A stretch of 64,000 nucleotides of DNA, from the IMG/VR virus record IMGVR_UViG_3300018080_000116, positions 74,193 through 138,192 of that record; one strand, given 5' to 3'. The notes under the pieces were generated by a model. That model worked only from the letters and a program-made list of their open reading frames with translations, ran no database searches and was not told the origin of the DNA. Of this stretch, positions 1,975 to 62,255 are shown piece by piece; within the stretch, counting starts at the first letter, position 1; each line of letters begins with the position of its first letter. Source of the stretch: a virus. The translations under genes and the position numbers were made by a program.

Positions 1975-2049
1975 TATATAGCAGAACAATGGTGCTGCGA
2001 GCGGATCGATGGGAGTGGTGCCCCAGAAGGACCGACCTGCTCGCCTCTA

Positions 2050-2090
2050 GAAGCCCGCTGGGATGGCATGGCCTCCAGCGGGCTTTCTTC
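2050..2090 (+). terminator. intrinsic terminator
   Basis: AAGCCCGCTGG / CCAGCGGGCTT stem followed by TCTTC. Confidence 0.6.
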
Positions 2091-2283
2091 ATGCGCAATT
2101 TGTGAGATTTATTCTGGATTTTTCTTTTTTGGATTTTCGAATTGATCTCGGGATTTTTCATTTGCGCAGTGGGATTTTAGTCCAGATGTATAACACGTGG
2201 TTGGCCTGGACGGTTTTAAGTGCAGATGTATAAGGGGGCGGCACCGCCGAGCCGGGTGCCCTGGCGGCTGCGCCGCCAGGGCA

Positions 2284-2321
2284 CCGAACCTTTCGGCGTC
2301 GAGCCGTGTATAAGGGGGCGA
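2284..2321 (+). promoter_or_regulatory. conserved early promoter, copy 2
   Basis: CCGAAC-N17-TGTATAAG-GGGGCGA; extra TGTATAA boxes at 2187 and 2227. Confidence 0.8.
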
Positions 2322-2369
2322 TCCGGCTGGTGCCGGGTGGCACCGGCCACTGACAAGGAGGCCCAAGCC

Positions 2370-2513
2370 ATGACTATGCAAGAACTGAACGACCTGAGCC
2401 GCAGGCAGTTGGAGGCCGAGGCGATCCGCCGTGGCTACCGTCCCGACCCGGACGACACCGACGAAGACCTGCGGAGCGTGATCCACCAGCGAGACCAAAG
2501 GAAGGCAGCATGA
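2370..2513 (+). CDS. small helical protein (possible SAP/Rho-N-like nucleic-acid binder)
   Basis: AAGGAGG RBS; LNDLSRRQLEAEAIRRGY...DEDL pattern; ends KAA. Confidence 0.55.
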   Translation: MTMQELNDLSRRQLEAEAIRRGYRPDPDDTDEDLRSVIHQRDQRKAA

Positions 2514-2791
2514 TCGTACCGAACGGCGACGAGGCGTATGCCCTGTCCGAGCGATATGACGAGCCGAGCGAGGCTGATCTGTTCGACGTGGACGATGCCC
2601 AGGCGATCAAGGCCAGCAACCGGCAGGCCAAGGTGGGCACCAGGGTGATCTGCCCGACCTGCGGTTGCCGGTTCACGAAGCGATCCTATCAGCACGTGTT
2701 CTGCCGGTCCAAAGGCCGAGGGAACTGCAAGGATCGGTTCCACAACCTCGCCAGCCCGGAGCGACTGGCGAGGGCCAGGGCGTGGTCCTAG
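2510..2791 (+). CDS. zinc-finger protein
   Basis: CPTCGC...HVFC...C motif; ATGA overlap with the upstream gene. Confidence 0.65.
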   Translation: MIVPNGDEAYALSERYDEPSEADLFDVDDAQAIKASNRQAKVGTRVICPTCGCRFTKRSYQHVFCRSKGRGNCKDRFHNLASPERLARARAWS

Positions 2792-3059
2792 TACATGAAC
2801 CGCTGCGCCTTGATCTTCGCTTGCAGGTCGAGGCGGCGATCTTCGTCGCCGTCTTCGTCCATCCGCATTAGATCGTCAACCTCGTGCCACTCCAGGCCGC
2901 AGTAGGTGCAGCCGAGGTCACGGAAGTCAACTGGCAGGGGTTGGCAGCATCGTGGGCAACGCATTGTATTCTCCGGGTTAGAGTGTTGGGCGAGCGACCT
3001 GCCCGCCCTTCACTTCCCTTTAGGCACCTGCGGCGGCAAGAAATAAAAAGAAAATTAGA

Positions 3060-3096
3060 CCGAACCTTTTTTGATCTTGTGTGTATAAGGGGGCGA
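3060..3096 (+). promoter_or_regulatory. conserved early promoter, copy 3 (drives the ncRNA locus)
   Basis: CCGAAC-N16-TGTATAAG-GGGGCGA; no credible ORF before the next promoter. Confidence 0.8.
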
Positions 3097-3287
3097 ACGG
3101 TGGGTGAGCAGCCCCGCAAGTCGCAGCAAGGCACGCTGCGAGCCGTCCCAGGCCGACCCGCTGACGAGGCAAACAGGCCATTCACTGATCCCCGCTCGTC
3201 TCAACCGTTATCAGTGTGGGTTGAGTGGTGTAAGGCGCAAGCCAGGGGGCACACCCAACATGGCGTTGGGAGGTACGAGGGTTCGAT
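3096..3287 (+). ncRNA. structured RNA with two degenerate tRNA-like units
   Basis: AACGGT/ACCGTT closing stem, TCGCAGC/GCTGCGA arm, GTGT/GCAC D-stem, CCCAAC/GTTGGG arm, GGTTCGAT T-loop word. Confidence 0.5.
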
Positions 3288-3351
3288 CATGGTGTAGTGG
3301 TAGCACACCGGCGTGCAGCCGGAAGTATGGGTTCGAGTCCCATTGATCGTC
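3283..3351 (+). tRNA. atypical tRNA or tRNA-like element (anticodon arm 2 nt short, central TGC; no encoded CCA)
   Basis: acceptor TCGATCA/TGATCGT, D-arm GTGT-AGTGGTA-GCAC, CCGGC-GTGCA-GCCGG, T-arm ATGGG-TTCGAGT-CCCAT. Confidence 0.75.
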
Positions 3352-3359
3352 TTATCTGC

Positions 3360-3518
3360 GGTACGACTGCTGGCCCAGAGAGGTCAGCAGGTAGGGAATA
3401 GAGTCCTGTAGGAGTGCGAGATCGCTGCTGTGTACGAGGTGGGGAACCCGGCACGAGTGGCCCTTTGAGCCTACAGGTGAATACCGGAGAACGTCAGCCC
3501 CGTGGCGTTGAGCGTACC
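3360..3518 (+). ncRNA. multibranch structured RNA between tRNA-like units
   Basis: nested stems GGTACG/CGTACC, CTGCTGGCC/GGTCAGCAG, CCTGTAGG/CCTACAGG, AACGTCA/TGGCGTT. Confidence 0.5.
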
Positions 3519-3532
3519 AACGAAACATGATT

Positions 3533-3661
3533 CGCTGCTTTGTGGTGTAATGTCAGCACTCTCGCCTTGAGTACCCGAGTCCGAGCCCCTGGTCATGCGG
3601 AGGGCAGACGACTCGGCGAAATTGGCGGGGGGTCCGGGTGCATAGTCCCGGCTGAGCGGCG
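3533..3661 (+). ncRNA. tRNA-like element with a 57-nt structured insertion in place of the anticodon loop
   Basis: TG-GTGT-AATGTCA-GCAC D-arm, CTCGCC/GGCGGG stem, CCGGG-TGCATAGT-CCCGG T-like arm, acceptor-like stem. Confidence 0.5.
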
Positions 3662-3675
3662 TTTTAAAAATTATG

Positions 3676-3712
3676 CCGAACCCTTTTCAGTTTGGCGTGT
3701 ATAAGGGTGCGA
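3676..3712 (+). promoter_or_regulatory. conserved early promoter, copy 4
   Basis: CCGAAC-N16-TGTATAAG-GGTGCGA. Confidence 0.8.
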
Positions 3713-3743
3713 ACATCACGCACCTTTTAACGGAGTGGTCCCC

Positions 3744-4106
3744 ATGCTGAATCGAAAGATTGCCCTTTACGTCCCTGGCACAACTGACGTGAACGTGCCC
3801 GCCCCCGAGCAGCAGGCAGCCGCCGTTGTCCATGCTCTCGAACAGTTCGCCGAGTGGTTCGGTGGGGCGACCGTGATCGACGGTCAAGGGGCGTGGATGA
3901 GCGACGAACACGGTCTCGTGGTCGAGCCCGTCCGCATCGTCTACTGCTTCACCGACGCCGAGGGATTGGCCAAGCATCTGAGTGAAGTCAAGCTGTTGGC
4001 CCGGCACGTCTGCCGAGCCATGTCCCAAGAGTGTGTCAGTCTGGAAGTGGCTGGCGAGTTGCAGTTCATCGAAGTCGCCGAGGTCGCCGACGAGAAGGTG
4101 GCCTAG
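3744..4106 (+). CDS. PII-like/DUF3574-fold protein, possible SAM lyase
   Basis: FGGATVIDGQGAW...VVEPVRIV...LARHVCRAMSQECVSL resembles the T3 SAMase pattern; start may be 3735. Confidence 0.4.
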   Translation: MLNRKIALYVPGTTDVNVPAPEQQAAAVVHALEQFAEWFGGATVIDGQGAWMSDEHGLVVEPVRIVYCFTDAEGLAKHLSEVKLLARHVCRAMSQECVSLEVAGELQFIEVAEVADEKVA

Positions 4107-4116
4107 TGTCCCATCT

Positions 4117-4148
4117 GAGCCCCCTGGGCATCGCCCAGGGGGCTCTTT
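4117..4148 (+). terminator. intrinsic terminator
   Basis: GAGCCCCCTGGGC-atc-GCCCAGGGGGCTC-ttt. Confidence 0.65.
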
Positions 4149-4178
4149 GAGTGTCCCCTGACCAACGGAGCCAAAACC

Positions 4179-4442
4179 ATGAAGTCGCACGCACGCCCCC
4201 GTCTGGCAGCCGAGACGATTCCGCCGTTGACCGGTGCCTCGGTGATCCAGCCCGGCCACCCGTACTACACTCAGTACGTCAAGTGGCTCGAAGCCCGCAA
4301 GGCCGAGCTAGGCCCCGAGGCAGCCGTGAGCAACAAGCGCAAGGGGCGTTTGTTCTTGGCAGCCCATCCGCACCTGAAGCGCTGTTGGGAAGGCGTGATC
4401 CTTCACGCCCGCCGAATCGAGGCCGAGAAAAAAGCAGCATAA
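4179..4442 (+). CDS. hypothetical basic protein
   Basis: GGAG RBS; ends KKAA. Confidence 0.7.
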   Translation: MKSHARPRLAAETIPPLTGASVIQPGHPYYTQYVKWLEARKAELGPEAAVSNKRKGRLFLAAHPHLKRCWEGVILHARRIEAEKKAA

Positions 4443-4444
4443 GA

Positions 4445-4481
4445 CCGAACCCTTTTTCGTTTCGTGTGTATAAGGGGGCGA
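4445..4481 (+). promoter_or_regulatory. conserved early promoter, copy 5
   Basis: CCGAAC-N16-TGTATAAG-GGGGCGA. Confidence 0.8.
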
Positions 4482-4577
4482 ACCGAGCAGAACGAAAGAC
4501 CGGAACAAGACTAAACAGGTTTGGTTATTCCTGGTTCTGCTCTTTCCTAACCCCCATTCCTTACGGAGACCCGGATC

Positions 4578-5312
4578 ATGTTGCGAAGCGTCGAGAAGCC
4601 CAATTCCCCCGTCCTGTCCGACCCCTTGTTCATCATGGCCATCGTGCCGATCCTCGCCGCCTTCCGCCGCATGGGCGAGCGGATCGCCGATCTGGTGGCC
4701 GTCGAAGATGACAACCTCGAACCCGTGTTCGACAAGCGGATCGAGCAAAACAACCTGGGCGTGGTCGTCGATGGCCTGTCGCCCGTGGTGATCGAGACCG
4801 CCCGCTATTCGATGCGAGTCGGCGGCAAGCTGGTTGTCAGTGCCGAAGCCAAGTCCCTGCTGGTCGATGGCGAGTTGTACGACTTCGACATGACTTGTGC
4901 GTGGCATCCCCAGGTCGAAGTCGAAATGCAGGCCCTCTTGAAGCGCCTGAACGTCCCGATCCTCTTGTTGATGGCAGGTCTCGGCTACAACCTGCGGCCC
5001 CGCCACGAGGTCATTCCCGGCCTGCTGGTGATCCACCTGGGCCAGAAGAAGGTCGAGCCCAATTCCGCCGCACAGGCCCCCTTCCGGCCCGCTGAGGCCG
5101 CTTCCGATGGCCCGAGCGTCATGTACCCCGGCCACCACAACGAGGGCTACCAGCCCGCCCAGGAGCCCGTGCGTTGCTCCTGCCAGGACGACAACCCCTC
5201 GTGGGACGGCCCGAGCAACTGTGCCGGTTGCGAGAACTTCGCCATCTGCCACCCGGCAGCCGCCGCCGAGGCCAACGTGTTCGTGGGAGAGCCGCTTCGC
5301 AAGGCCGCATGA
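4578..5312 (+). CDS. hypothetical protein with C-terminal Cys cluster
   Basis: ACGGAG RBS; CSC...CAGC...C; ends RKAA. Confidence 0.7.
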   Translation: MLRSVEKPNSPVLSDPLFIMAIVPILAAFRRMGERIADLVAVEDDNLEPVFDKRIEQNNLGVVVDGLSPVVIETARYSMRVGGKLVVSAEAKSLLVDGELYDFDMTCAWHPQVEVEMQALLKRLNVPILLLMAGLGYNLRPRHEVIPGLLVIHLGQKKVEPNSAAQAPFRPAEAASDGPSVMYPGHHNEGYQPAQEPVRCSCQDDNPSWDGPSNCAGCENFAICHPAAAAEANVFVGEPLRKAA

Positions 5313-34083: not shown

Positions 34084-34458
34084 CTATGGATTATTTTCCC
34101 TCCACCAATAAACCTTGTGGTTGTTGAAGTACCGCCCCTTCCTCAGATTACGCATGTCTTCGGGGTCATCTGGATTCCAAAATCGAACATAGGTGTTGTC
34201 GCCATTTAATCCCACTGGAGAAAATGTCACATATATTCGCTTGTGGTGCCTCCACTGTTTGGGAATGCGGAACACCCACATTTTTTTGCCATCTTTAGCT
34301 TTGATCCGAAAGTTGCCAAAGCCACCTTCGTTGACAAGCAGATAAGCCTTTCCCCACACGCACCTCTCATTCGTAGCGACGGACTCATCCTTCCACGATA
34401 CGAGATGGGCCGCATCATCTGTTCCGGTTGACATCGCAATCACTAGCAGTAGTAACAT
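34084..34458 (-). CDS. putative secreted protein
   Basis: N-terminal hydrophobic MLLLLVIAMS. Confidence 0.5.
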   Translation of the reverse strand: MLLLLVIAMSTGTDDAAHLVSWKDESVATNERCVWGKAYLLVNEGGFGNFRIKAKDGKKMWVFRIPKQWRHHKRIYVTFSPVGLNGDNTYVRFWNPDDPEDMRNLRKGRYFNNHKVYWWRENNP

Positions 34459-35171
34459 TATTTTGCTCGAATTGGAATGTGTTGAACCCAAGCACGCCCA
34501 TTGGGGTGCTGCGGCGGGTAGACTCGGTGCATGGTCACCTTTTGGAGATTGTGGTATCTCTTTTGGAGGTCCATGCCGAGTTTGATGAAGTGGGGGATGT
34601 GATCCGAACGGTCATCCCAGAAGTCAATTTGCACAATTCCATCATGCATCAACTTCTTCTCAATGATGTATTTTTTGTGGGCGATGGTGCTCCCATCTGG
34701 CTTATTCTTCTTTCCGGAACGAGGATAATCTGGCTCGGTGATGAAATCGCCAGAGTAGAATTCATCGTGGGGGTTGGGCTCGTCATCCTCGCCATCATGC
34801 TTGGTGAGGTGTTTCAATGCCTTTTTGTTGGTGGGCGATACATGCCGCTTGCCAATAAGCCCCTGCCCCGCAAGAAGCTGGCGCACACGATCAGAGATGA
34901 TCCCACGTCGGCCTGTCATTAAGACGGCATGGGTATCTGGGTCGGCTTTGGCCTCCAAGAAGGCTCGGACCACTTCTTCGTTGAATGTAACACCATCTGG
35001 CAACGACGCTTGGCTGCCCCACCAATCTTTTCCATTCCACCCCATTCTGTCCTTTTCTTCCTGGGACTCGGGCTTCAGTGGCGAGTTGGCAAGGGTGCCG
35101 TCAAAGTCGAAGATGGCCAATTTGGTCTGACCGGGCATTTGTTGCATCCATTCTCGGAAACTGATTTTCAT
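34458..35171 (-). CDS. HAD-family phosphatase (RNA-repair type)
   Basis: FDFDGTL, LMTGR, FWDDR. Confidence 0.85.
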   Translation of the reverse strand: MKISFREWMQQMPGQTKLAIFDFDGTLANSPLKPESQEEKDRMGWNGKDWWGSQASLPDGVTFNEEVVRAFLEAKADPDTHAVLMTGRRGIISDRVRQLLAGQGLIGKRHVSPTNKKALKHLTKHDGEDDEPNPHDEFYSGDFITEPDYPRSGKKNKPDGSTIAHKKYIIEKKLMHDGIVQIDFWDDRSDHIPHFIKLGMDLQKRYHNLQKVTMHRVYPPQHPNGRAWVQHIPIRAK

Positions 35172-35293: not shown

Positions 35294-36841
35294 TTAACCT
35301 TGGCCGACGCCAAGTTTGCCCAGGAATTTTTCAACCTCCAGGGCATCTACGGCTTGGCCTCTCATGTGGTTTGGCAGCTTACCACTGCCACCACAGTAGG
35401 CACAACCACCACCTTGGCAACCAGGACACCTATCTCGGTCGGAACCTTCGATTTCACCCCACTGTGCCAGCGGTCGGTCTTCATCTGCGAACATTCGCAC
35501 GCTCTTGGCCCAGGTGGGTCTGGGGTCTCTAACTTTGCCCTTCTCTGTGAGACGGAACATGTTGACCCATTCTCTGACCTGTTCTGGGCTTAGACCGGTC
35601 CCCCTAATGCGTTTCAACATTACTGCTCGGTCTTGCGGTGAGAATTCTAGAAGTTGCAGCAGGAACATAACCGCACGTCGTTCTTGATTGGCCCAACCGG
35701 TTGGTGTGGCTTGCCCTCTTATGTCTCTCGATCCGCCCAAGGCCGCTTCAACTGCTTCTAGCGGGTTACCTTGAAGCAACCAAGCCAGAGCAAGCGACTT
35801 ATCTCTGCGAGAGGAAAATTCTGAGGGGATATTCATGTTGAGTCTCACCCCTGGGAACACTCGTTCCGACAGACCGGTTCTATCGTAGATCTTAACGTAT
35901 CTTTCAACATCCACATCGGGGTGCAGCAAACCTTTGAGAAACTCATCTCGCACTCTTTCGAGGGCCACACCACGCAGATCAACAAAGTCTTGCAGCGCAT
36001 CTTCGATGTCTGGGTCCATTCTGGACCCCTTGCCGAATCGACAGTGAAATCGCACGGCTCGCATCACACGCAACTTATCTTCATTGAATCTATCTCTTGC
36101 TTTGCCTACCGTTCGGACGACTTGATTTTTGATGTCATGCCACCCCTTCCCGGTGGGATCGTAGAGCCTGTTATTTTCGCCATCGGATTTGGTCAGTTCA
36201 ATATACATGGCGTTGATTGTGAGGTCTCTTCTGCTTGCGTCTTCGTGGGGGTTGTCCACGAAATCCACCAGGGCGGCACCATCGGTCACCTTGGCGTCAC
36301 GACGAAAAGTAGCAATTTCAAACTCCTCGCCATCCACCACAGCGCTGATAACAAATACCTTGCCCGATTCATCTCGTCCCTTAACGAACCAAGTTTTCCT
36401 ATCACTCTTGCTGGATGTTTTGGGGCGGAAGGTGAGTCTGAGTGGCTTGGCATTTTCATCATTTTTACCACTGCGATCAGGCGACATGGTGAAGCCTGCT
36501 GAGGAGAGAATGAGCGCAATTTGTTCTGGGGTGGCATTGCTTGCCAAATCGTAATCCTTGATGGACTTCCCGGCGATGAAATCACGAACGGGACCGCCCA
36601 CCAGAAACAGTGACTTCTTCTGCATGGTGATGGGCTTGCCATCGGTGTTGTCCATCAGCTTGATGTTACCGCTATTCAAGAAAGCTTCAATCAGGGGCCG
36701 CATTTTGGCTGGAGGAATGAATCCCTTTTCCATCTGAATGAATTCTTTCTTCCAGTCTTTGCCCGCATTGCCACTCGCATCGGGCTGGCCTTCTTCTTTC
36801 AGCACAACAAACTGCTTAAATGATGGTATTTCAGGCTTCAT
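35294..36841 (-). CDS. cca: class II tRNA nucleotidyltransferase (CCA-adding-like)
   Basis: VGGPVRD, DYDLA, RRDLTINAM, EDKLRVMRAVRF; C-terminal CxxC-CxxC. Confidence 0.88.
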   Translation of the reverse strand: MKPEIPSFKQFVVLKEEGQPDASGNAGKDWKKEFIQMEKGFIPPAKMRPLIEAFLNSGNIKLMDNTDGKPITMQKKSLFLVGGPVRDFIAGKSIKDYDLASNATPEQIALILSSAGFTMSPDRSGKNDENAKPLRLTFRPKTSSKSDRKTWFVKGRDESGKVFVISAVVDGEEFEIATFRRDAKVTDGAALVDFVDNPHEDASRRDLTINAMYIELTKSDGENNRLYDPTGKGWHDIKNQVVRTVGKARDRFNEDKLRVMRAVRFHCRFGKGSRMDPDIEDALQDFVDLRGVALERVRDEFLKGLLHPDVDVERYVKIYDRTGLSERVFPGVRLNMNIPSEFSSRRDKSLALAWLLQGNPLEAVEAALGGSRDIRGQATPTGWANQERRAVMFLLQLLEFSPQDRAVMLKRIRGTGLSPEQVREWVNMFRLTEKGKVRDPRPTWAKSVRMFADEDRPLAQWGEIEGSDRDRCPGCQGGGCAYCGGSGKLPNHMRGQAVDALEVEKFLGKLGVGQG

Positions 36842-40848: not shown

Positions 40849-43800
40849 ATGGCCCAACTCCAGGATATAACAGGACGCCTAGTCACAATGGAAGGAGAAC
40901 TCTCCGAGATGACTGGCGTTCTGCGCCAAATGCTTGCCAAGCAAGACATGGGTGCGGCCATTCCCTACATGGAAGAAGAGAAAACCAAGAATGAGGAGAG
41001 GAATACAAAGCTCGATGAAATTCGAGACATCATGCAAACCCTCAGCGACGACTTCAAGGAAGAGATGGACAATGCCGAGGATTATGCCGCCCAAATCAAA
41101 GAAGTAGTTGAAAGTCTAAGGGAAGCAAAAGGAACTGCTGGTGAAGCCACACCTGCGGCACCCACAGCGGCACCAACTGCTACCATGGGTTTCGATAACC
41201 TCGTTGGTTCGATGAGTGACGTACTCGGCAAAGATCAGGCTAAAATAGCCAAGTCGCTTACCACAGAAGAAAAATTATTGACGGCCATAGCCGCTTCCTC
41301 TAGGGCCATTGAATCGCAAATCAGAACGCTAACAAGTGCCGCCACCACCAAAGGCTCAATCCACACGCAGGTGGACGGTTCAGATGTCATCAATGTCACC
41401 AATTCACTTCTTGAAGCCCAGATCAAAGAGAGATCTGGCAAGGACATCAAGGTAGATGTAGCACAGATTGGCGGGGGCGCTGGCGGGGGGACTGGCGGGG
41501 GTAGCGGTCCTGGTTCTGTGTTCCCAACTGACGGAGATGCAGCAGCGGCAGGCGAGACGGCAGGCAAAACTTATCGTGAACACTTTTACAAAGCCGGTAT
41601 TTTCGGCACCATGGCTGCTGCCCTGGCAGGCTTAATCAAAAAATTCAGTCCCATAGAACATTTATTCAAGGGCGTGGTTCAAGACGAACTTGAATTCATG
41701 CAAAACATGCGTGCCACGGCTTTCGAGGTAGAAGGCATCTCGGCCTCCACACGAGGGCTACAAGAAGAATGGCAGCAAACTGGACGGGTGGTTGCACGCA
41801 CGGGCATGAACCTGACCGAATTCCAGACACAGTACGTAAAAAACTTGCGTGCTGGCGTTATTTCTCAAAAGGCAGCCCTCGATGTTACCAAGACAGGGCT
41901 ACATCTATCCCAGATGATCGGTGCGAACCATGAGCAGACTTCAGATACACTCATGAATTGGCACAAAACCATGGGCATGAATCAGAATCAAATGGCCCAG
42001 TTCAGCAGATCACTCCAGGATGTTGCACGACTAACCGGCGTGACTGGCGACAACTTAATGGAAGCCGTCAAAGCATCTGAAGAGCTTGTAAAGAATATGA
42101 GAAATGCAGGTCAGTTGACCGCAGCAGCCGCCGCCAACCTCACATCCACCATGGCTTCCGCCCAAAAACTTGGAGTGGCTGAAGGTGCGCAAGAAATAAT
42201 GAAAGCTCTTACGGGCACAAATGCTTTGCTGCAAGAAACCAGTAAAGAAACGCAAACCTTCCTGTTTAATGCAGGTGTGCATGCCGGGAGGTTTGGAGAT
42301 GTGTGGTCTGGAACCATCAGCCAAACCAAAGCAGGCATGAAAGATCTCGCTGGGGGTATGAAGGGGTTTGTCGAGAGTGTCATGGGGCAAACCATGGACG
42401 ATTTCGACAAACTCAGTAAAGAAGAAAAAGCGAAGCTGAACTTCATTGTCAAAAATGTCACCGGTAAATCCATCGATGAAGCTCGAAGAATTATTGAGTC
42501 CATCGAAGAAGGTGCCAAGACATATGGAGATCGAATATCAGACATCAACAAACGACTAAGGGAGGAAACGCTTACCCTCGAAGAGAGGAAGAAACTAGAA
42601 GAAGATAGATTGGCCATGCAAATTGGCGGGGGCTTTGAATTCCTCACTGCATTCGACGAAGCCGCAAAGAAGGGGCTTGACATGAGTGCAGCCGTACAAG
42701 ACGCCATGGCCAACAACGAGGATTTGGCAGCAAGCATGGGTTCTATGGGCCTAAACATAGACATGATGGGCCCAACCATGGCGCTTGAAAAAGCTGCACT
42801 TTTCACTGCTGAAAGGCTGAAGGAGGCGGGCGGTGCCGACTTTACACCACAAATCCAACGAGCGTTGGATACCGGTGATACCCAAGCCATGCGTGAAGTC
42901 TTATCCGATATGAGTGCTGCCCAACAAGAGTTGGCCATGGACACCAAGAAGGGCCTCGATCCCATGACTGAGATGGCCCACAACTTCAACAAGCTGAACG
43001 AAACCGTTCGTGACTTCACGGGGCCAGCTTTAAGGTACATGTCTGGAATGATGATGTGGTTGGCGGTGATCGCTGGCGGCATTGGTTCCGTGTGGACTGC
43101 CGCTCTTGGCTTCGGCGAACTGAAAAAAGGTTTAGCCGGATTGTTTGGAATGGGCGGTGGTGCTGGCGATATGATGGAAGGGATGGACGAAGCAGGAATT
43201 GATGATGTATTTAAGGCTGGCTTGGCCAAAGCGGGCGAATACGTGCCCCAAAGTATCAAGGATATGTTTGGTGCAGGACTCGGCAAGGCCAAAGATTTGA
43301 TTGGTGCGGTCATTCCTGGCGCATTTGCAGACAGTGTTGCGGATGCTGGATTGGATACCGTAGGAGACGTGGTGGGGGATGCTGTTGCTGGCGGTGTGTC
43401 CGACGCTTTGACAGCTTCGACGGGAAGCATCACCACAGGCTTGGGTAGCGAGCTTGCAGATGGTATGACCAGCACACTTACCGCAGGTTTGGATGATGTG
43501 GGCGATCATTTCACAAGCACTATTGTTGGAAACTTCGATGATGCTCTAGGTGGCGTGAACATAGAAGATGTGGGCTTGCTTGACCAAGCAGGCGACATCC
43601 TGGGGGGCGGGCCAGAAGGCGGAAAGGCACCTTCGTTCGATTGGGGTGGCATCGAAAAAATTGGCGAGGAATTGAAGAAAGCCGCCCCAACCCTCATCAA
43701 AGCAGCTATTGGCCTCGCAATCGCTGCTGCGGCTGTAGTTCTACTCATCAAAGTCTTGCAGGCTGTTGGAATTGGCCCCAAGGAAGCAATGGAAGGGGCC

Positions 43801-46800
43801 ATCACCATTGCGGTCATTCTGGGAACCGTTGCTTTGATTGCTGGTGCTGTTTACGCCTCTGTACACGCATTGAAAGCCGCCAGCAAAATGTGGGGAGTAA
43901 TTAAAGCCTCTTACAAAGACATGTTGATCGGTGCGGCTGTCATTGGGTTGATGGGACCGGCCATCGTTCTTTTGGCAACAGCAATCGTATTTGTTTGTAA
44001 AGAAATCATGGGTGCATTTGGCATGGACGCTTCCACTGTAGCCAAAACCGCCATCGACATCGCAGCCATACTTGGTGCTGCCGCTGCTATTACAATTGCG
44101 GCAGCAGCAGGCGTTGCTGCAATTATGGGTGTTGGCGCTGCGCTTGGCTTGCTAACTGGGCCACAAGCGCTTGCAGCGCTTGCGGCCTTGGGTATTGGTG
44201 TAGCGGCCATTCTTCTTGCTGTCCCGCTTTTGCTCACTCTTGCGGCAGGAGTTGTAAGGATCGCTCAGGGTGTCATGAGTATGATGGGCGTCGATGCCGC
44301 TGTAGCTGTTGAAGTTGGCAAAAATGTTGCCGCCCTTTTGGGTGCCACCGCACTCATCATTATCGGAACCGCAGCAGGACTTGCGGCTCTTTGGGGAATT
44401 GGCAAGGGCATAATGGCAATGTTTACCGGAGGCTTGGCACTTAAAACCTTGATTGAACTAGGCGTAGGAATAGCTGCTGTGTTAATTGCGGTCCCAATCT
44501 TACTCACGATTGCCGCAGCGGTCGTGAAGATTGCCCAAGGCGTATTGGGCATGATGGGTGTTGATGCTGGCGTTGCCATGGAAGTCGCCAAAAATGTTGG
44601 CGGATTACTTATAGCAGCAGCAGGCATTATCACAGGGGTGGGACTCGGACTTGCCGCCCTTTGGGGCATCGGCAAAGGCGTATTGATGCTTGTGAGCGGC
44701 CCACAATTCCTAGCAACACTGTTGGCCCTTGGGGTTGGAACCGCAGCCGTTTTGCTTGCCACACCAATACTTCTTGGGATTGCCGCTGCTGTAGTTAAGA
44801 TAGCCCAAGGCGTACTAGGTGCAGCAGGAGTAGACGCTGCTACTGCTGCACAGGTAGGTGAAGATGTAAGTGCTTTGTTAAAAGCAGCAGCAGGCATTGT
44901 GATTGGAGTGGGTGCAGGTCTTGCCGCCCTGTACGGAATGGGTTGGGCCATGGTCACCTATCTGGCTGGCCCTCAGGCTCTAGTTGCCCTTGGCATGATG
45001 GCCTTGGGCGCTGTTGCGGTTAGGTTGGCCACCCCAATCATGTTGGGCATCGCAGCCGATGTTGTAAACTCTGCAAAAGAGATTCTGAAAGCAGAAGGAA
45101 TGGATGCTGGCGCTGCCGCCAAAGTCGCTGAAGATGTTAAGGGGCTGTTGACGGCGACCGTTAAGATAGTCGCTGGTGTAGCTTCTGGAATTGCCCTTCT
45201 TACTGGAATTGGCTGGGCACTTGGACTTTTGTCAGGCCCACTAGCACTAGGATTGATCCTCTCGCTGGCAGCCGGTGCGGCTGTGGTGAGATTGGTAACA
45301 CCTATGTTGATTAAGTTTGCTGCCAGTCTACTTGACATATGCAAAGCGGCAGCAGGAGCCTATGTAGATCCCGCAGAGAGCCAAAAGGTGGTTGCGGCAA
45401 TGGATGGCATGGGTAAAGCAGCAAAAGCAATTGCCAATATGCTTGGGGCTTTTGTAAATGACATCGTGCCACTTACGCAAGGTTGGTTCCTTGGGTGGTT
45501 CGGCGCATCTCCGCTTGACGAGCTAGATGATGCGATGCCCCAAGTAGAGGCAACCATTGATGTTTTAGCAAACTTTCTTGGTGATCTGATGCGAACGATG
45601 AGCGCCAAATTCCCCGATGAAGGCCAACTCGCAGGATCTATCGAAATCATTAACAGCCTGGGGACCATGGCAAGCAGCGTAGCCGACGCCCTCGGGGTTG
45701 CCGCTGAAGAATTGCCTGATCTGACTGATGGTTGGTTCCTGGGTTGGTTTGGTGCATCTCCACTTGACGAACTGGCTGCATGCATACCTCAGATTAAGAG
45801 TAGCATGGATATAATGTCCAAGTTCCTGGGTGAAGTAATGGTTGATTCCCTGGGCAACTTCCCCAGTATGGACAACATGACTCAGGGAATTGAGATCATC
45901 AAAAACATGGGTGAGATGTCCACCAGCATATCAGCCGCCCTTGGTGAGGCAGCCGAGAAGTTGCCCGAGCTAACCGAAGGTGGATGGATACCATTCTTCT
46001 CCAGTTCGCCACTCGAAAAACTCGAAGAAGCTATTCCGGCTCTTACAGATGGCTTTGAAACGGTAGCCAAGTTCATGCGAGCGGTTATTGGCGTTACACA
46101 CGATGTCTTTTCTGACCCAGATCAAGCCAAGAAAGATGTCGAATTGGTGACAGCCATTGGGACAGGTGCTACGGCGGTTGCTCAAGCACTTACAGTCTGT
46201 GGGAATGACCTTGTGGAACTGACCGAAGACACAGGCTGGTTTGGCTGGGGCGATTCTGTAATCGAGCAGTTTGACGAAGCACGACCCGCTTTAAGAGACG
46301 CCTTCAAGTCGGTTGCTCGATTCATGAGAGATGTCATCACAATCGCCAAGGCGGAAATGGGCGACATTGAAAATGTGCAAGATGCCATCGACATTGTAAA
46401 TGGCATGGGCACTATGGCTGGCAGTATCGCCAAAGCATTCTCGGTGATTGGTGAGGATCTTGTCCCGATGACTGAAGAGTCTGGCTGGGGCTGGTGGTCT
46501 GAAGAAGCCTTAACTAAACAACTGGAAGATGCAATCCCAGATCTTGAAGATGCCTTTGGCACCGTCGCTGGATTCTTGGGTACATGCGCAGAAGCCGTAA
46601 TGAGCGAATTCCCAGGAGAAGGCGAAGTTAAGACGGCTACGGATCTAATGACAGCACTCGGCCCAATGGTGGATGGTGTTGCCGATGCAATGAAAACCAC
46701 ATCCTTCGAGATGGTTCCCCTCGCTGGTTGGTCGGGCATTGAGAATTTAGAAGATGCCATCCCTGAATTGAGGATGTCATTCCGAACCATCTCAAGATTC

Positions 46801-49800
46801 TTGGGCGGAATAGTAGAAACACTGAAAGAACAATTTCCCTCCCCCAGAGATGTGCAGGTCGCAACATCGCTGCTGGAAAACATCGGCATAATGGTTGAAT
46901 CTGTAGCCAAGGCTCTTGAGGCAACAGCATTTCACCTGCTTCCGCTCATACAGGATCAAAGAAGTTGGCTGGGCTTCTGGACAATAGAAGGTACGTCGTT
47001 GATGGACAAGCTGGTTGCGGCTGTTCCTGAGCTTCAAGCTGGGTTCACTGCTGTTGCCACATTCTTGGGTGGCATCATCAGGACGCTGCAACAGCAATTC
47101 CCGGCACCAAGAGACGTGCAAGTTGCCACACTCCTCATGGAGAACCTAGCCAAGCTTACACAGTCCATCGCTTTGGCCATGGAAACTGCGGCATGGAACC
47201 TCATTCCACTCACTAAAGACAGTTTGTGGATCGCATTCTGGACAGGAAAGAGAGACAATTCGCTGCTCGATAGACTACAAGAGGCCCTCCCAGAACTAGA
47301 TAAGGGCCTTACAGCAGTCCTTAAATTCTTGGGGGGAATTGTCAGGATTCTTCAGCAGCAATTCCCAGCACCAAGGGATGTGCAGGTCGCATCTCTTTTG
47401 ATGCACCATCTTGCAATCCTTACCGTTTCGATTGCATCAGCAATGAGAGTGGCCGCAAACCAATTGATCCCACTTACGCAAGACACAGGTTGGCTATGGT
47501 GGTGGAGAGAAGCGCCACTAACCGATCTTGAAGAAGCCATTCCCGACCTTGACAAGGGGTTGAGGGCAGTCATCAAGTTCTTGGGCGGCATCGTTGACGT
47601 TCTGCAAGAATCGTTCCCGAATCCAAGGGATGTGCAAGTTGCGACACTCCTTATGGAGAACATATCGAAGATGACTTTTGCTGCGGCAATGGCACTTCGT
47701 TACACAGCCTACGACCTGCTTCCGCTCGTACAAGACAGAAAATGGCTGTTCTTCTGGAGAGATAGTTCGCCGCTTGAAGAATTAGAAGAGGCGATCCCGG
47801 ATCTCCAAAGAGGTATGCACGCAGTCATCAAGTTCTTGGGTGGCATTATTGATGTATTGAAAGAATCTTTCCCAAATCCAAGAGACGTTCAAGTTGCTTC
47901 TCTGCTCCTAACCCACATAGGAATCATGACTGCGGGTGCAGCACTTACGCTGCGTGAGGTGGCCTGGAACTTGTTGCCACTAATTCAAGAGCCTAGCTGG
48001 CTCTTCTTCTGGAGGGAGAAAAAGTCCTTGCTAGAAAAATTGCAAGAGGCCATCCCCGATCTCCAAGCAGGCATGCGTGCAGTATTCAGGTTCTTGGGCG
48101 GTATCATCGACACGCTTAAAGCTGAATTCCCAGAGCCACGAGATGTACTTGTTGCTACAAATCTCATGAGCAACATCGCCACCCTTACCAAAGGTGTATC
48201 CGGCACATTGGGCACAGTAGCCGAAGAACTCATCCCATTAACTCAGGGTCGGTTCCTTGGGTGGTGGGGCTCCACACCTCTCGAAGATTTGGAAGCGGCA
48301 ATTCCAGATCTTCAGGAAGGGTTCCGCACCGTAATGAAGTTCTTCAACAGCCTCATCGGCCTTATGAAGGAAGAGTACCCAGACTTCAGCGACGTAGCTA
48401 CAGCCGGTGTTTTCCTCATGTTTATGGCTGATGTGGCCAAGGGTGCTTCCACACTGTTGAACGTGGTGGCGGAAGAACTGCAACCACTCACGGAACGAAG
48501 ATGGTTCGGCTTCTTTGATTCTAAACTGGCTGGCCTGGAAGAGGCCATTCCAACATTAGAAGAGGGTCTTGGCAAGGTCATGCGATTTATCAGAGACGGC
48601 GTGATCGAACCCTTACGTGGATTCGCCAGACCAAATGAAATCCAACCCATGGTTGAAAGCATGGTGGCCACTGTAGAGGTGGTGAAAAACATCCCCAGAT
48701 TCCTCGAAGAGCTAGTCAAGGCCATCGAACCTCTGGTGGGTGGATACCTATGGTCGCCAATTGATGGAATTGAAGCTAAGGTTACAGAGTTTGCCGAGAA
48801 CTTCGGCAAGATTGCTTGGTTCATGCTTGATGCGGTCATCACACCACTGCACTTGTTGCCTGCCCCTGAAGAAATTCTGGCCATCAACCATAAGCTGGCA
48901 GCCATGTGCGGCGTCTTTGCTATGATCCCGGTCATGTTGGAATCCTTCACAAAACACCTGGGTGAATTGTCAAGCGGATATTTCTGGTCGCCGATTGATG
49001 GAATCGAATCACAAGTTGAAGAATTCGCCACGAACTTCTACAACATCATCAAGTTCATGGACACGGGAATCATCATCCCACTTCAGATCTTGCCGCCAGT
49101 TGAAGAGTTATACCAAGTGATCGGCAAGCTAGTGGGTATGTCCAGTGTAATCAGCACCATCCCGATCCTGCTCAATACGTTTACTGAAACTTTAGGTGGG
49201 CTGACGAGCGGCTGGTTCTGGTCGCCACTTGACTCCATCGAATCACAATCCGAAGAGTTCGCCGAGAATTTCGGCAACATCCTCCACTTCATGCAAACAG
49301 GCATAATGGACCCGCTATTTGAGATGCCAGAAGCAGACATGTACAACGCCATGGTCCAAAAATTGACTGGCATGAAGAATGTCATCGAAGCTATCCCGCC
49401 TGTGTTGGCCTCTTTTACAGAAGGCTTGGCTGAACTTACACAGGGTTGGTTCTGGTCACCACTCGACTCCATTGAAGCCCAGGCCGATGAATTCGCCGAG
49501 AACTTCGGCGACATCATTCGCTTCTTTGAGTGGGGAATGATTTACCCGCTTATGATGTTGCCGTCCGCCGACGCCATCGGAGAACTGCACGCCAAGCTTC
49601 CGGCAATGGATATGATTATCCAGAGTATCCCACCCATGCTGGCTTCCTTCACGGAAAACCTCAGCAAGCTGACACAGGGTTGGTTCTGGTCACCGCTCGA
49701 CTCCATCGAAGCTCAAGCTGAAGAGTTTGCCGAGAACTTCGGCAGCATTGCAATGTTCTTCCGAGTTGGAATGGTTTATCCACTCATGCTCCTCCCGTCC

Positions 49801-53301: not shown

Positions 53302-54900
53302 ATGCCAACAGTTGGTGGTGTGAGAGCAGGTGGCGATGCAAAAGCCACATGTCTCATCGGATGTATCAAAGATTTCACGTGTAACGGACAAGTGCCGCTG
53401 GTTTTTCCAGTAAACGGAGACAATATAGCTCCTTGGGTGAAGGCAAGATTCGCCAAAGGCAGTCCAGGCGGCATTATGGAAGATGAAATTATCACCGTGG
53501 GCAATGAATCGTGTTGGCTTGTAAACAAATTCGGCGAACCACACCACGCTGCCATAAAGAGCTTTGAGTATGGTACATTTGATGGCCATAAGGCTAAACT
53601 AGAGATCATTGATGAAGAGGGTGGGGCCTTTTTCCTGTTTGTGGAAAAGATTCTTAAATGTCTGGACCGAACTAAAGCCCAATACTTCTTCCAGGTGCAA
53701 TGGGGCTGGACAATTCAGAACTGCGACGGCAATTGGGATTTTGAGGCTTCGCCCATTGTCACCTTCGTCCCCATCAACCTGGAAGTCAGCTTCAGTGATG
53801 GCGTAGTAAAATACAACATCACTGGAACCGACGCTTTCCAAATTTCATTTGTTGCTCGTGAAGACGAACACACTGGAAGTGATGATGCCAAGGTCTGCTT
53901 GAAGCCCGCCATCACAGATCTGCTACAGAAGAATGAACCCAAGGCCGCTGTTAAGTTCCTGCGAAAGGAAAATGACGGAACCATCACCACCTGGAACTAC
54001 AAGCCCGCATGCCCCTGCTTTGCTGAAGGCCCGCTTTCCTCATGGACATATGACAATCAAAACAAAATGGGCACAATTGCAAGATGGACCCAACCTTTCA
54101 GAACCACCAGGGATAAAGGCTTGCTTTTTCAATGGGACACTCTAGAGCCCAACCCAACGACGGTCTTATGGGAAGATAATTCATTGGAATGTGACGAAAA
54201 GGCTCAGTGTAATCCCGGCAGATTTGTTGGTAGCTTCATTGTAAACGGCGGCAAGTGCAGCAATGTCATCAGTTTCAATCCCAATATCAACTGGCCCGCT
54301 GGTTTCGCTTTGATGGCCCAAGGCGGTGGCGAAGGTGGTCCGGTCAATTCGAAGGGTGTCAAGAAAGACAATCGACGACCGCAGGGTTGTGCGCCCCAAG
54401 GGGGAAGCAAGGCCGGTATCAAACAGAGTGTTGAGTTAACCCGACAAGGCGTAGATTGTTATGGCACTGAAGATGTGTACGATGAAACGGAAAAATCTCA
54501 AATGGCCCACAACAAAGCCAATGTCGGACGTGAAGGCATCCAGCCCATCGAAGCAGAACTTCGAATCCAGGGAAACCCTGGATACAAATTTGTAGCCTCT
54601 CAGTTTATTCATCAGGCATATGCCTGCATTGTTGTAATCAATCCATTCCACCTTGCGGGACCATGGTGGGATGGCTGCGGTGATTGGATGGTCCTTGCAG
54701 ACAGTGGTTGTAACACTGTGTTGAGCAATCGCTTCTGGAAGGTCATGGGCGTCAACCACCAGATCAAGGAAGGCTCCTATGTAACTACGTTAAAGGTGGT
54801 GCTGCCCGTACCCGGTGTGGACATCAGTCCTGACCAACACCTCGGTTCGGACGATCTGGCTTACCGCCCAATGGATTCAGCCGATGGGCCACCGTGCTAA
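53302..54900 (+). CDS. baseplate hub (gp27/late control D-like)
   Basis: position; IEAELRIQGNP, V.GVNHQI..G.YVT.L. Confidence 0.65.
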   Translation: MPTVGGVRAGGDAKATCLIGCIKDFTCNGQVPLVFPVNGDNIAPWVKARFAKGSPGGIMEDEIITVGNESCWLVNKFGEPHHAAIKSFEYGTFDGHKAKLEIIDEEGGAFFLFVEKILKCLDRTKAQYFFQVQWGWTIQNCDGNWDFEASPIVTFVPINLEVSFSDGVVKYNITGTDAFQISFVAREDEHTGSDDAKVCLKPAITDLLQKNEPKAAVKFLRKENDGTITTWNYKPACPCFAEGPLSSWTYDNQNKMGTIARWTQPFRTTRDKGLLFQWDTLEPNPTTVLWEDNSLECDEKAQCNPGRFVGSFIVNGGKCSNVISFNPNINWPAGFALMAQGGGEGGPVNSKGVKKDNRRPQGCAPQGGSKAGIKQSVELTRQGVDCYGTEDVYDETEKSQMAHNKANVGREGIQPIEAELRIQGNPGYKFVASQFIHQAYACIVVINPFHLAGPWWDGCGDWMVLADSGCNTVLSNRFWKVMGVNHQIKEGSYVTTLKVVLPVPGVDISPDQHLGSDDLAYRPMDSADGPPC

Positions 54901-61900: not shown

Positions 61901-62255
61901 CCTGAGCGGGCCCTATCGAAGCTGGAAAACCCTGACACCTGGGGGTGGCACAAGCGTAACCTACAGTATTCTGCAATACGAAAAAGTGGAAGCAGACATT
62001 GATGAGCGACCCCACCTACTCGTCCCCGTGCCCGGACACTATTTCGGCAAGATAGAAGCCACGAACACCATTTGGGAGCAAGATAAATTGGACAGAAGTG
62101 ATAACGAAGTAATAGAAATTTCGATTGAAGAAGCTCCTGCCACTCCTTTAATGGCACACATGCTAAATAATAAAGGCAGTGGAGTGGAAGAATCCCAAGG
62201 ACAAGAAGAAGCTATTTCATACGCCATTGAATGGGCCCCAGAAGGAGAAAAATGA
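58986..62255 (+). CDS. baseplate wedge gp7-like / P2 gpI-domain protein
   Basis: LIPYL...F, AIPLFKKKGT; GTG start. Confidence 0.75.
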   Translation: MALKRINQSPKITDEVVFDLPTPDADGCFNSAEYQARGGPYKVDKVVIYHVEIDQNAPNAEEYEKNLYESEKWTAYEAARAAACDSPTDDNLFALTQAQEALVVSAKQENIYYRSAEVVAKFGTSEDPAWLSSDTDNAFIIHIDEDADGNPQYGHYELHWEPKGVREGDYFICWTWTPNPAGDSLTAHTHFTLFGDTQLTTSIPSHYTPEGKYETLLDRYLPEVYKTSLSDSDIAPRVFHELNAAIAKGFIFLEDMANQMVDLQDANTIHESLIPYLSNLFNLRLKSDDPTLWRAQVKRAIPLFKKKGTLSALQEAFNLAGMNLTKFTKLWQVISLYTWQEAFDIEDEDELTFVLDKNAVLPIDVSNCEVYYRPADSDSWTQLTTDYLVFDTDQGETTITWIGHELSYNPIVLEEGDTIRVIYPHTAVPDSAAQTIEDYVRELPLADQRDHRDQDCPLKNWNVRVIEEDDPMFDVVIPTRHPYHDPLIYGWVRTEFPYSENIYNMEEYNGSTRESCNPCDIDCQFLDPCLYCQSSKFIVDVEVERLSNDRILETQEILQEFTPFHAVTHAINFTGAVNEYIALPEETVEALVHINTDEITVAGGAQMIFMRTMNLAKEIDRNDLALKTTVATQTGGTAYNDEIVLFSPDIKLEGIGMNHQSPDSPPGVMWNNYLEVLAPSANSGTYRLGEPDKHNATVTKISGSIGESPLDTQEFTFRLSNEIYELGSVDVLVEFCLTDATVDFEEINVKSTRDVNDNPHHIDAGSAWKVKIPAYSATPYTVKEIQADGSLLLEDSTPGTLPTSVQTGMPYTLYDGDDNIKATSSAGAWEKTGRGVVDLTGDSTMTDVRDVFRTGSGTGRDYIDVGGTQYAVSGYVYDETHYLYLANYDVAAVGGTTITGYRRLVDGARGYFNYRGLKLKTGTTDFESDLEINNGANPPAEMLENDSFKENFLILIDSEYYAVSEWDAETITLSGPYRSWKTLTPGGGTSVTYSILQYEKVEADIDERPHLLVPVPGHYFGKIEATNTIWEQDKLDRSDNEVIEISIEEAPATPLMAHMLNNKGSGVEESQGQEEAISYAIEWAPEGEK

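Follow-up and report, generated by a model that had tools for sequence, protein, structure and literature searches.

A cluster of tRNA-derived, probably non-decoding units in a cassette region of a huge-phage contig

Results

Arrangement of the locus

We analyzed positions 3096-3661 of a 64,000-nucleotide (nt) stretch of viral DNA, which is the right-hand 64 kb of the 138,192-bp IMG/VR virus contig IMGVR_UViG_3300018080_000116. This whole stretch is called the window below, and its numbering is used unless another record is named. Positions 3096-3661 contain two intact tRNA-type cloverleaves, U2 (3283-3351) and U3 (3533-3661), two rearranged remnants, U0 (3102-3206) and U1 (3219-3282), and a spacer, UM (3352-3532), all on the + strand. 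An earlier note made from the sequence had described an array of three tRNA-like RNAs behind an early promoter, with abnormal anticodon regions, and had proposed that they may not be decoding tRNAs.

The stretch is bracketed by two copies, at 3081 and 3697, of a promoter-like repeat that consists of an A/T-rich tract, CCGAACC, approximately 14 nt and GTGTATAAGGG(GGCGAAC). At least 22 copies of this repeat were found in the 138-kb contig, on the + strand every time, and the window contains those at 300, 2306, 3081 and 3697. The copy that heads the stretch is the third in the window, as had been noted before; it occupies 3060-3091, with CCGAACC at 3060-3066, GTGTATAAGGG at 3081-3091 and the A/T-rich tract upstream. 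The shape and the layout of the repeat suggest that it is a promoter, and an early one, in which case the transcript would start at about 3095-3098. At the other end, TTTTAAAA is followed by the next copy (3662-3707; CCGAACC at 3676-3682 and GTGTATAAGGG at 3697-3707), which probably drives the orphan gene at 3744-4106. No intrinsic terminator was predicted near the locus in a search over 2000-5000. The coding potential was examined using a codon-usage score trained on the long open reading frames (ORFs) of the contig. The best score within 3096-3680 was at most 8, versus 34 for the neighboring gene (3735/3744-4106); no ORF in 3096-3680 passes this score, which agrees with the approximately 570 nt without a credible ORF described in the earlier note.

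The D-arm motif TGGTGTA-N6-17-GCAC occurs on the + strand at 3226, 3290 and 3543, that is, in U1, U2 and U3. Its chance expectation in the 64-kb window is 0.19, and none of 100 shuffles contained 4 matches, so that the shared D-arm was confirmed. A fourth copy of the motif, TGGTGTAAAGTCGGCAC (42833-42849, - strand), lies within an ORF of 3,833 amino acids, has no tRNA-like call and is probably a chance match. The only tRNA predicted by ARAGORN and Rfam, whether in the window or across the entire contig, is U2 (3283-3351), and neither U1 nor U3 matched the Rfam tRNA family RF00005 even at E values up to 10. CCA is not encoded by any unit, as the earlier reading of the sequence had stated. A 6S RNA reading was rejected (18.5 bits against a threshold of 46.4), as was a one- or two-piece transfer-messenger RNA (tmRNA): ARAGORN and Rfam gave none at their default settings, and a 'permuted tmRNA' appeared only at a 70% threshold and spanned the next promoter-like repeat.

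U2

U2 is an intact cloverleaf of 69 nt, detected both by ARAGORN and by the Rfam tRNA model with a score of 51.2 bits (gathering score, 29). The Rfam alignment shows 2 nt missing in the anticodon loop. The anticodon arm, CCGGC-GUGCA-GCCGG, has 15 nt and forms 5 bp with a 5-nt loop, and because of this loop U2 should not decode. ARAGORN reads the same arm as a 4-bp stem with a 7-nt loop and G33, and names the gene 'Ala(tgc)' (UGC). When a 7-nt loop is forced on U2, G33 is accompanied by a C32-G38 pair, and a 7-nt loop with U33 is not obtained. Moreover, the 3:70 pair of U2 is G:C, in contrast to the alanine identity pair G3:U70, and 1:72 is a U-U mismatch; the name assigned by ARAGORN is therefore meaningless.

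The remainder of U2 has GG in the D-loop, the T-loop TTCGAGT, a 4-nt variable loop and the discriminator C, and its T-arm is the sole canonical one in the 138-kb contig. The body is closest to the tRNA-His genes of the clade (GATC acceptor core, AAGT variable loop and C73), whereas the base preceding position 1 is T instead of the G(-1) of tRNA-His. From its normal elbow and acceptor stem, U2 is predicted to be cut by RNase P, trimmed at its 3' end and supplied with CCA. U2 also scored 25.3 bits (E = 0.011) with the mascRNA-menRNA family (RF01684), below the gathering score of 42.5.

U3 and its homologue in a complete relative

U3 has an acceptor stem of 8 bp (3533-3540/3654-3661), the D-arm GTGT-AATGTCA-GCAC without GG, and the anticodon stem CTCGC/GCGGG (3561-3565/3625-3629), which encloses 59 nt in place of a 7-nt loop. 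Of these 59 nt, the first 7, CUUGAGU, resemble a loop, and the other 52 form a helical insert. In the T-arm, CCGGG/CCCGG closes a non-canonical loop of 8 nt. The minimum free energy (MFE) structure and the centroid structure of U3 are both this cloverleaf, with z = -2.24. When introns were allowed, ARAGORN called U3 at 92% of its threshold, whereas 60 dinucleotide shuffles gave no call at 90%. No second copy of the insert was found in the contig, and a repeated mobile element was rejected as its origin.

Among the tRNA finders proposed as a check in the earlier note, both ARAGORN and Rfam call U2, neither calls U1, and U3 is called by ARAGORN only, with introns allowed. An array of three comparable units was consequently not upheld, U1 lacking its 3' strands altogether. 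The abnormal anticodon regions themselves were all found: 6 bp with 5 nt in U1, 2 nt too few in U2 and 59 nt between the strands in U3.

A relative of the baseplate wedge protein of the contig (coding region 57394-58974) is encoded in 294 IMG/VR stretches, of which the best 80 were retained as loci. One of these, G002, is a complete genome of 572 kb with terminal repeats. It contains a 70-nt cloverleaf, G002:1122-1191(-), which scored 41.8 bits with the Rfam tRNA model. Its D-arm and 5' strand of the anticodon stem are identical to those of U3 at 19 of 21 positions and the 3' strand at 5 of 5, that is, at 24 of 26 in total (blastn E = 1.6e-4). The two units also share a D-loop without GG and a non-canonical T-loop (TTAAATT in the G002 unit). 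The G002 unit has a 6-nt loop (GGAUAU) and no insert. Both sides were changed in 5 of the 7 acceptor pairs and 2 of the 5 T-stem pairs, and no pair was broken in the comparison of this one pair of sequences. The baseplate proteins of the source phage and G002 are only about 60% identical, and the resemblance of the two units in spite of this distance argues for purifying selection, as far as two sequences allow.

The G002 unit directly follows a protein gene; behind it come TTTTAA and the next box, in the way that U3 precedes TTTTAAAA and the next repeat. It lies among short cassettes marked by a repeated box of their own, TCTGTACCTAAT, which indicates that the cassette layout is conserved in the clade and the box sequence is not. 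At the left end of G002 (locus L136, 1100-2030, - strand), the box (A/T)TCTGTACC(T/A)AA occurs three times within 1 kb. No canonical tRNA with the D-arm and stem of the U3 type was found in the records of 26 relatives, so that it is the aberrant units that resemble each other. Only one further near match to the U3 D-arm and stem was obtained, a 5' tRNA fragment, TGGTGTAATGGTAACACACTGGCG, in an ORF-free stretch of approximately 850 nt in G007 (IMGVR_UViG_3300009594_000005). This stretch lies between genes (locus L157, about 1330-2250, - strand); it contains a sub-threshold tRNA T-arm (Rfam, 20.4 bits), ends with a strong intrinsic terminator and matches no Rfam family.

Short-loop and insert-bearing units in relatives

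Cloverleaves with abnormal loops recur in related huge phages. The relative G004 (IMGVR_UViG_3300020172_001601) carries two tandem units, b and c (locus L117, 6154-6228 and 6230-6304), between tRNA-Glu and tRNA-Thr within a tRNA array, and ARAGORN calls neither. Both have the D-arm GTGT-AACGGTA-GCAC of the U2 type, a 5-bp stem with the 5-nt loops CACCA and GUGGA (GUGCA in U2), a 3-nt variable loop, an 8-nt connector and normal T-arms. Between b and c the connector, D-arm and T-stem are nearly identical, while both sides were changed in 5 of the 7 acceptor pairs and 2 of the 5 anticodon-stem pairs, with one single change and no broken pair. The pair counts for all units were taken from explicit segment parses, as MAFFT alignments with 6-nt-loop or insert-bearing units disagreed with the structure.

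A covariance model of U2, b and c (R1) scored its three members at 95, 95 and 74 bits and ordinary tRNAs at 49 bits or less. In a search over 50 IMG/VR relatives and a mis-binned 546-kb contig, R1 detected, besides its members, only ordinary tRNAs and G002:1122-1191(-), which was the next-best match. In the source contig it detected U2 alone; U1 and U3 were not recognized. A scan of IMG/VR with the D-arm pattern matched ordinary Met and His tRNAs of other phages. It also gave further short-loop cloverleaves in other tRNA-rich phage contigs, at loci L178 and L184 (6-nt loop, within tRNA arrays, not called by ARAGORN) and at L180 (5-nt loop, alone). Together with U2, the two G004 units and the G002 unit, these form a provisional class defined by a full cloverleaf with a 5-bp 'anticodon' stem and a loop of less than 7 nt.

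A cloverleaf scanner was run over 527 kb of phage loci including the tRNA arrays of the relatives. Of approximately 176 cloverleaves, 163 fit a 7-nt loop and about 13 did not; shuffled sequence gave none. ARAGORN parses of 110 tRNAs of the relatives were likewise overwhelmingly canonical, with a few C33 variants, some of them in G002 and G004. The loops of the relatives are thus mostly canonical, and the 5-nt loop is an exception, not the norm of the clade.

G004 also has canonical tRNA bodies with inserts of 17, 86, 32 and 51 nt in the anticodon loop (L117, 326-417 and 623-801; L118, 11020-11123 and 16135-16257, respectively). These genes lie within its array of 57 tRNAs. Two more ARAGORN calls in G004 include 'introns' of 271 and 578 nt (L121, 274-639; L117, 18027-18695).

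U0, U1 and the spacer

U1 was recognized from its sequence and its D-arm motif as the 5' three-quarters of a tRNA-like gene. It consists of the 5' acceptor strand GGTTGAG (3219-3225), TG, the D-arm GTGT/GCAC with a 17-nt loop, the anticodon arm CCCAAC/ATGGC/GTTGGG (6 bp and 5 nt, with A33 and C37 if read as 7 nt), AGGT and the 5' T-stem strand ACGAG (3275-3279). The T-loop, TTCGATC, continues directly into the first bases of U2, and 3' strands of the T-stem and acceptor stem were not found downstream of U1. Their exact complement lies on the other side instead: the 12 nt CTCGT-CTCAACC (3195-3206), which end 12 nt upstream of U1, complement both its T-stem 5' strand and its acceptor 5' strand. 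The number of chance occurrences expected for one particular 12-mer in the 300 nt to either side is about 4e-5.

These 12 nt are the end of U0, which reads as a diverged tRNA-derived remnant: GGGTGAG (3102-3108), ACGAGG (3164-3169), an expanded 'T-loop' of 26 nt that ends in GATC (3187-3190), CTCGT (3195-3199) and CTCAACC (3200-3206). U0 and U1 have GG(G/T)TGAG, CGCAAG, GCAC and ACGAGG...GATC in common. The simplest history would be that U0 and U1 arose as a tandem duplicate, diverged and then underwent a deletion at the TCGATC microhomology. A permuted two-piece cloverleaf of U1 is not favored by energy; it is not the thermodynamic optimum, and the MFE structure of 3160-3290 does not contain it.

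Within the 182-nt spacer UM there is a hairpin of 9 bp (about 3367-3390), and CCTGTAGG/CCTACAGG close a long arm. ARAGORN reported a 'Gln with a 50-nt intron' in UM only at an 85% threshold, at which shuffles gave 0.37 predictions per 800 nt. No homologue of UM was found.

tRNA enzymes and RNA-repair functions

A class II nucleotidyltransferase of the CCA-adding/poly(A) polymerase family is encoded at 35294-36841 (-), with matches to PHROG 2244 'tRNA nucleotidyltransferase' (E = 3e-41) and the Pfam PolyA_pol head domain (87.7 bits). The phage thus carries an enzyme of the CCA-adding type, in line with the earlier note. The argument that was drawn from it is weak, however: the ordinary tRNA genes of the relatives also lack an encoded CCA, and because this holds throughout the clade, the enzyme serves the whole tRNA set and not this locus in particular. 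Next to it, at 34458-35171 (-), lies a gene for a HAD phosphatase of the RNA-repair 'Swiss Army Knife' family (Pfam HAD_SAK_1, 34.1 bits; cut-off, 25.6). Rnl1- and Rnl2-type RNA ligases occur in the relatives, including the G004 record. The splicing endonuclease PF01974 was absent from four relatives, one of them complete; RtcB was absent from the source contig and the relatives; the G004 record has neither RtcB nor a tRNA-splicing endonuclease; and no TROVE (Rsr) gene was found in the contig. The phosphatase, the CCA-type enzyme, the ligases of the relatives and the cassette-terminal position of U3 and its homologue form the context in which the decoy and processing roles proposed in the earlier note are considered below.

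The source phage and the surroundings of the locus

The completeness of the 138,192-bp contig was estimated by CheckV at 27%, and the contig is about a quarter of a huge-phage genome. More than 1,000 proteins homologous to its baseplate protein, at about 60% identity, were found on contigs as long as 634 kb; by this protein, the contig would belong to the huge phages, whose sizes here reach about 630 kb. The best GenBank match was a 595-kb 'uncultured phage' record. The nearest baseplate proteins (73-87% identical) are on short contigs, and another, at 64%, is on a 174-kb contig; the locus comparison set leaves out these contigs. By Rfam, 41 tRNAs were counted in G002, 57 in G004 (a 340-kb fragment) and 12 in G003. 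The remaining tRNAs of the source phage are presumably in the missing three-quarters of its genome.

The closest long relative is G001 (IMGVR_UViG_3300022555_003222), with a baseplate protein that is 64% identical. It has a lone tRNA-Glu(UUC) (locus L112, 2326-2397, - strand) with C33 (loop CCUUCAA) and a 4-nt variable loop. This gene belongs to a cassette region that precedes the baseplate gene by about 46-50 kb, a position comparable to that of U2, and the G001 cassettes bear the related box (G/A)TGTATAA(C/T).

Several searches were directed at the locus itself. No relative of 3000-3750 was detected by blastn among 50,697 phage records. The neighboring protein (3744-4106) had no match in IMG/VR and matched only itself among 5.8 billion proteins. 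Searches of IMG/VR with the U2 pattern and the promoter pattern gave no match to the locus, and the CCA-enzyme protein of the contig had no match there. In metagenome contigs the promoter pattern gave 30 single matches in unrelated sequence, none with a second promoter-like match; most of the 30 were one recurring conserved sequence, largely from human-gut assemblies.

Upstream of the locus, approximately 1 kb (1760-2787) contains no ORF that passes the codon-usage score. Within it, the promoter-like boxes ATGTATAAGGG (2226) and GTGTATAAGGG (2306) are 80 nt apart with a GC-rich palindromic sequence between them, and a comparable tandem pair of boxes is found at 70366/70459 of the contig. This segment may be a second non-coding cassette. 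The following ORF of 58 amino acids (2788-2964, - strand) has two CxxC pairs (zinc-ribbon-like), a GGAGAA ribosome-binding site and no Pfam match; it is convergent with the + strand cassettes and leaves about 100 nt between its end and the promoter-like box that heads the tRNA-like cassette. In the structural region, the 3,833-amino-acid ORF mentioned above (40849-52350, + strand) had no PHROG match at E values up to 1e-5, and the large ORFs at 53302-54900, 54910-56964 and 58986-62255 were likewise without a PHROG match.

Discussion

Nature and possible role of the units

The reading that we favor, with a probability of about one half, is that the stretch is a tRNA-derived gene cluster in a cassette region, with a promoter-like box of its own, two non-decoding cloverleaves (U2 and U3) and rearranged U0/U1. 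Its parts differ in strength. That the units are tRNA-derived, non-decoding tRNA-like RNAs is very probable. The earlier suggestion that they may not decode stands for U2 and U3, whose loops have 5 and 59 nt in place of 7 nt with U33. That at least U3, and probably U2, has been kept by selection is somewhat better than an even proposition. A decoy role specifically is rather improbable.

In the mechanism we propose, host tRNA-end enzymes would cut the primary transcript at U2 and U3, RNase P at the 5' sides and RNase Z or exonucleases at the 3' sides, and CCA would be put on U2 by the phage or host nucleotidyltransferase. The products would then work through the tRNA body and not through decoding. 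For U2, we would prefer a role as competitor or decoy directed at tRNA-binding or tRNA-cutting host factors; the tRNA-repair investment of the clade (the HAD_SAK phosphatase, the CCA-type enzyme and the Rnl1/Rnl2 ligases) makes host tRNA-directed nucleases the obvious candidate target. For U3, its position and degenerate elbow suggest a cassette-terminal tRNA-like handle that could define or protect the end of the transcript. Similar units also stand inside normal tRNA arrays, where a mere cleavage signal is unnecessary, and a trans-acting role via the tRNA body is therefore more likely for them. In its widest form the proposal is that huge phages maintain a class of early-expressed, non-decoding tRNA mimics, matured by tRNA-processing and CCA-adding enzymes and with a loop of 3-6 nt or a helix, that act as decoys or inhibitors of the host nucleases or sensors of tRNA-directed defense; we consider this wider form speculative and on the whole improbable. 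Under it, the pairing of the U0 3' end with U1 could represent a two-piece, circularly permuted tRNA-like RNA.

Several results weigh against this reading. An orthologous locus was not found in any close relative by the blastn, pattern and neighboring-protein searches, and for that reason the covariation evidence consists of pairwise comparisons. Folding of the whole region was not better than that of shuffled sequence (z = -0.17), and the same is seen in several of its parts: the fold of U0 is not significant (z = -0.34), U1 gave z = -0.25 to -1.1 and is called by neither ARAGORN, Rfam nor R1, and for UM the values were z = -1.73 when 3352-3500 was folded and -0.2 to -0.45 with other boundaries. 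Two features that assist tRNA recognition by RNase P and by CCA-adding enzymes, GG in the D-loop and the T-loop motif, are missing both from U3 and from its homologue. The anticodon loop recognized by known anticodon nucleases would be imitated poorly by a loop of 5 nt, and a decoy would therefore have to use the tRNA body. In G004, gene conversion between two tRNA genes that were formerly normal, instead of selection after the loop had shortened, could account for the compensatory pattern of units b and c. Finally, a close relative of G004 (IMGVR_UViG_3300032053_005312, locus L192, about 3043-3122) has a single hybrid unit between tRNA-Glu and tRNA-Thr, which combines the 5' acceptor strand of b with the 3' acceptor strand of c, and these do not pair; either an unequal crossover was tolerated here, which would make the units dispensable, or the repeat collapsed during assembly.

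Alternative explanations

Much of this evidence would also be expected if all units were decaying pseudogenes, a tRNA graveyard of functionless RNA whose helices have survived only because the units were damaged recently. The end of U1, where the T-loop TCGATC meets the first bases of U2, fits a microhomology deletion; U0 is diverged, with its 26-nt 'T-loop'; U0, U1, UM and the region as a whole lack a fold signal; the acceptor stem of the L192 hybrid does not pair; the G007 fragment lies in ORF-free sequence; and the tRNA sets of huge phages are redundant. We nevertheless consider general decay unlikely. In U3 and its G002 homologue, 24 of 26 bases were kept and seven pairs were changed on both sides with none broken, although the baseplate proteins are about 60% identical, and the G004 pair shows the same compensatory pattern. 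Moreover, the cassette has retained its full promoter-like box, and short-loop cloverleaves recur in unrelated tRNA-rich phages. Unconstrained decay, which the earlier note had set out as the opposite of its proposal, thus fits U0 and U1 and perhaps UM, but not U3, and the picture is mixed for U2 in view of the unpaired acceptor stem of the L192 hybrid. MALAT1/mascRNA and the mitochondrial punctuation model are precedents for a different possibility, namely that the units are RNase P/RNase Z handles that free UM, separate cassettes or do both, so that the RNA between them is the product. The exact bracketing of UM by U2 and U3, the fact that U3 and G002:1122-1191(-) each form the last unit of a cassette, with TTTTAA and the next box directly behind, the lack of a predicted terminator nearby and the sub-threshold mascRNA match of U2 all agree with such punctuation. 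It is nonetheless distinctly unlikely, since UM has no homologue and a marginal fold signal, the G004 units stand in a dense array of ordinary tRNAs where an extra handle is not needed, and the degenerate elbows of the U3 class should weaken recognition by RNase P.

It is very unlikely that U3, and perhaps UM, is a precursor tRNA from which splicing or joining, for example by phage RNA-repair enzymes, would produce the loop CUUGAGU with the anticodon UGA. The 7 nt beside the U3 stem (C32, U33, UGA, G37 and U38) do resemble a real anticodon loop, the G004 array offers canonical bodies with loop inserts, and RNA ligases and an RNA-repair phosphatase are present in the clade. However, neither a tRNA-splicing endonuclease nor RtcB was found in the searches of the contig and the relatives described above; the insert, at 52 nt, falls far below the length of a group I intron and matches no Rfam intron family; the insert-free G002 homologue still has a 6-nt loop; and the D- and T-loops of U3 are without the elbow nucleotides usual in a ribosome-competent tRNA. 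More improbable still is a single ornate non-coding RNA of about 570 nt resembling ROOL or GOLLD, in which tRNA-like modules would be embedded and U0/U1 would form a permuted two-piece domain. Its best evidence is the complement of 12 of 12 positions between 3195-3206 and the strands of U1, which is far above chance, and the ORF-free stretch of G007 with its tRNA-like pieces and terminator is comparable. The 12-mer is equally explained, however, as the inherited 3' end of a tandem duplicate; no Rfam family was found at its gathering score for such an RNA in the window or at E values up to 10 in 2950-3800; the whole region shows no fold signal; and the MFE structure of 3160-3290 is free of the permuted cloverleaf.

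Implications

To our knowledge, all characterized anti-nuclease phage tRNAs are still working tRNAs. Recent reports have recast phage tRNAs as weapons against host nucleases that cut tRNA (PMC10264068, PMC11464382, PMC11555353). If the favored reading is true, a maintained non-decoding class would represent a second strategy, in which tRNA-binding host factors are occupied or misled; alternatively, the tRNA-end enzymes of the cell would be used to cut and protect phage transcripts. Standard tRNA finders miss U3, the G004 units b and c and the L178 unit, or misname the anticodon (U2 as 'Ala'), and short-loop genes that are missed or misnamed distort tRNA counts and codon-usage arguments for huge phages.

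Comparison with known systems

ROOL and GOLLD are phage-borne, tRNA-associated ORF-free RNAs of 500-800 nt; unlike them, the region described here has no Rfam match as a large RNA and no whole-region fold signal. The permuted tRNAs of Cyanidioschyzon merolae and two-piece tmRNA encode the 3' strands of the acceptor and T stems ahead of the 5' part, with a short linker between, an order also seen in the U0 3' end and U1, but they need a bulge-helix-bulge and a splicing endonuclease, or a tmRNA body, and neither an endonuclease nor a tmRNA was called here. The Bacillus cereus 'tRNA-Other' (PMC3399842) and prokaryotic tRNA fragments (PMC9897764) are also tRNA-derived and outside translation, and some are regulatory, while others are no more than remnants, which U0 and U1 also seem to be. 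In contrast to the present units, they are chromosomal and not phage-borne, and a short-loop class maintained across genomes was not described for them in the literature searched. YrlA, an RNA bound by Rsr/Ro60 (PMC4201824), is a non-decoding mimic with conserved D- and T-arms that occurs in phages and, like U3, has a long helix at the anticodon position. In YrlA, however, the RNA ends lie on the long helix and the acceptor is capped, which is the reverse of U3, and membership in the YrlA/Y RNA family was rejected because the contig has no TROVE gene and the units gave no Rfam match to it. Phage 'tRNA-like structures' have been mentioned in general terms (PMC10690425). Short-loop cloverleaves or insert-bearing tRNAs in huge phages were not described in the literature searched, which is not proof of novelty.

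The closest functional parallels come from two groups. Phage tRNAs counter tRNA-cutting defenses in several systems: anticodon-loop variants in mycobacteriophages (PMC10264068), the T5 tRNA-Lys against PARIS (PMC11464382) and phage tRNAs against retron effectors (PMC11555353). Such tRNAs are thought to act early against host tRNA nucleases, and they resemble the present units in being phage-borne, in having altered anticodon loops and in coming from genomes with tRNA-repair enzymes. They differ from U2 and U3 in that the known cases decode, have 7-nt loops and replace the cleaved host tRNA; with their loops of 5 and 59 nt, U2 and U3 would not stand in for any tRNA in translation. The second parallel is the mascRNA of MALAT1 (RF01684), a cloverleaf with a reduced arm that is excised by RNase P and RNase Z, receives CCA, takes no part in translation and sets the 3' end of the upstream RNA. 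That family is eukaryotic and U2 lies below its gathering score, and the processing at the present locus is predicted only. The locus works most like a mix of a mascRNA-type element and the phage tRNAs of tRNA warfare, and it is a member of neither group.

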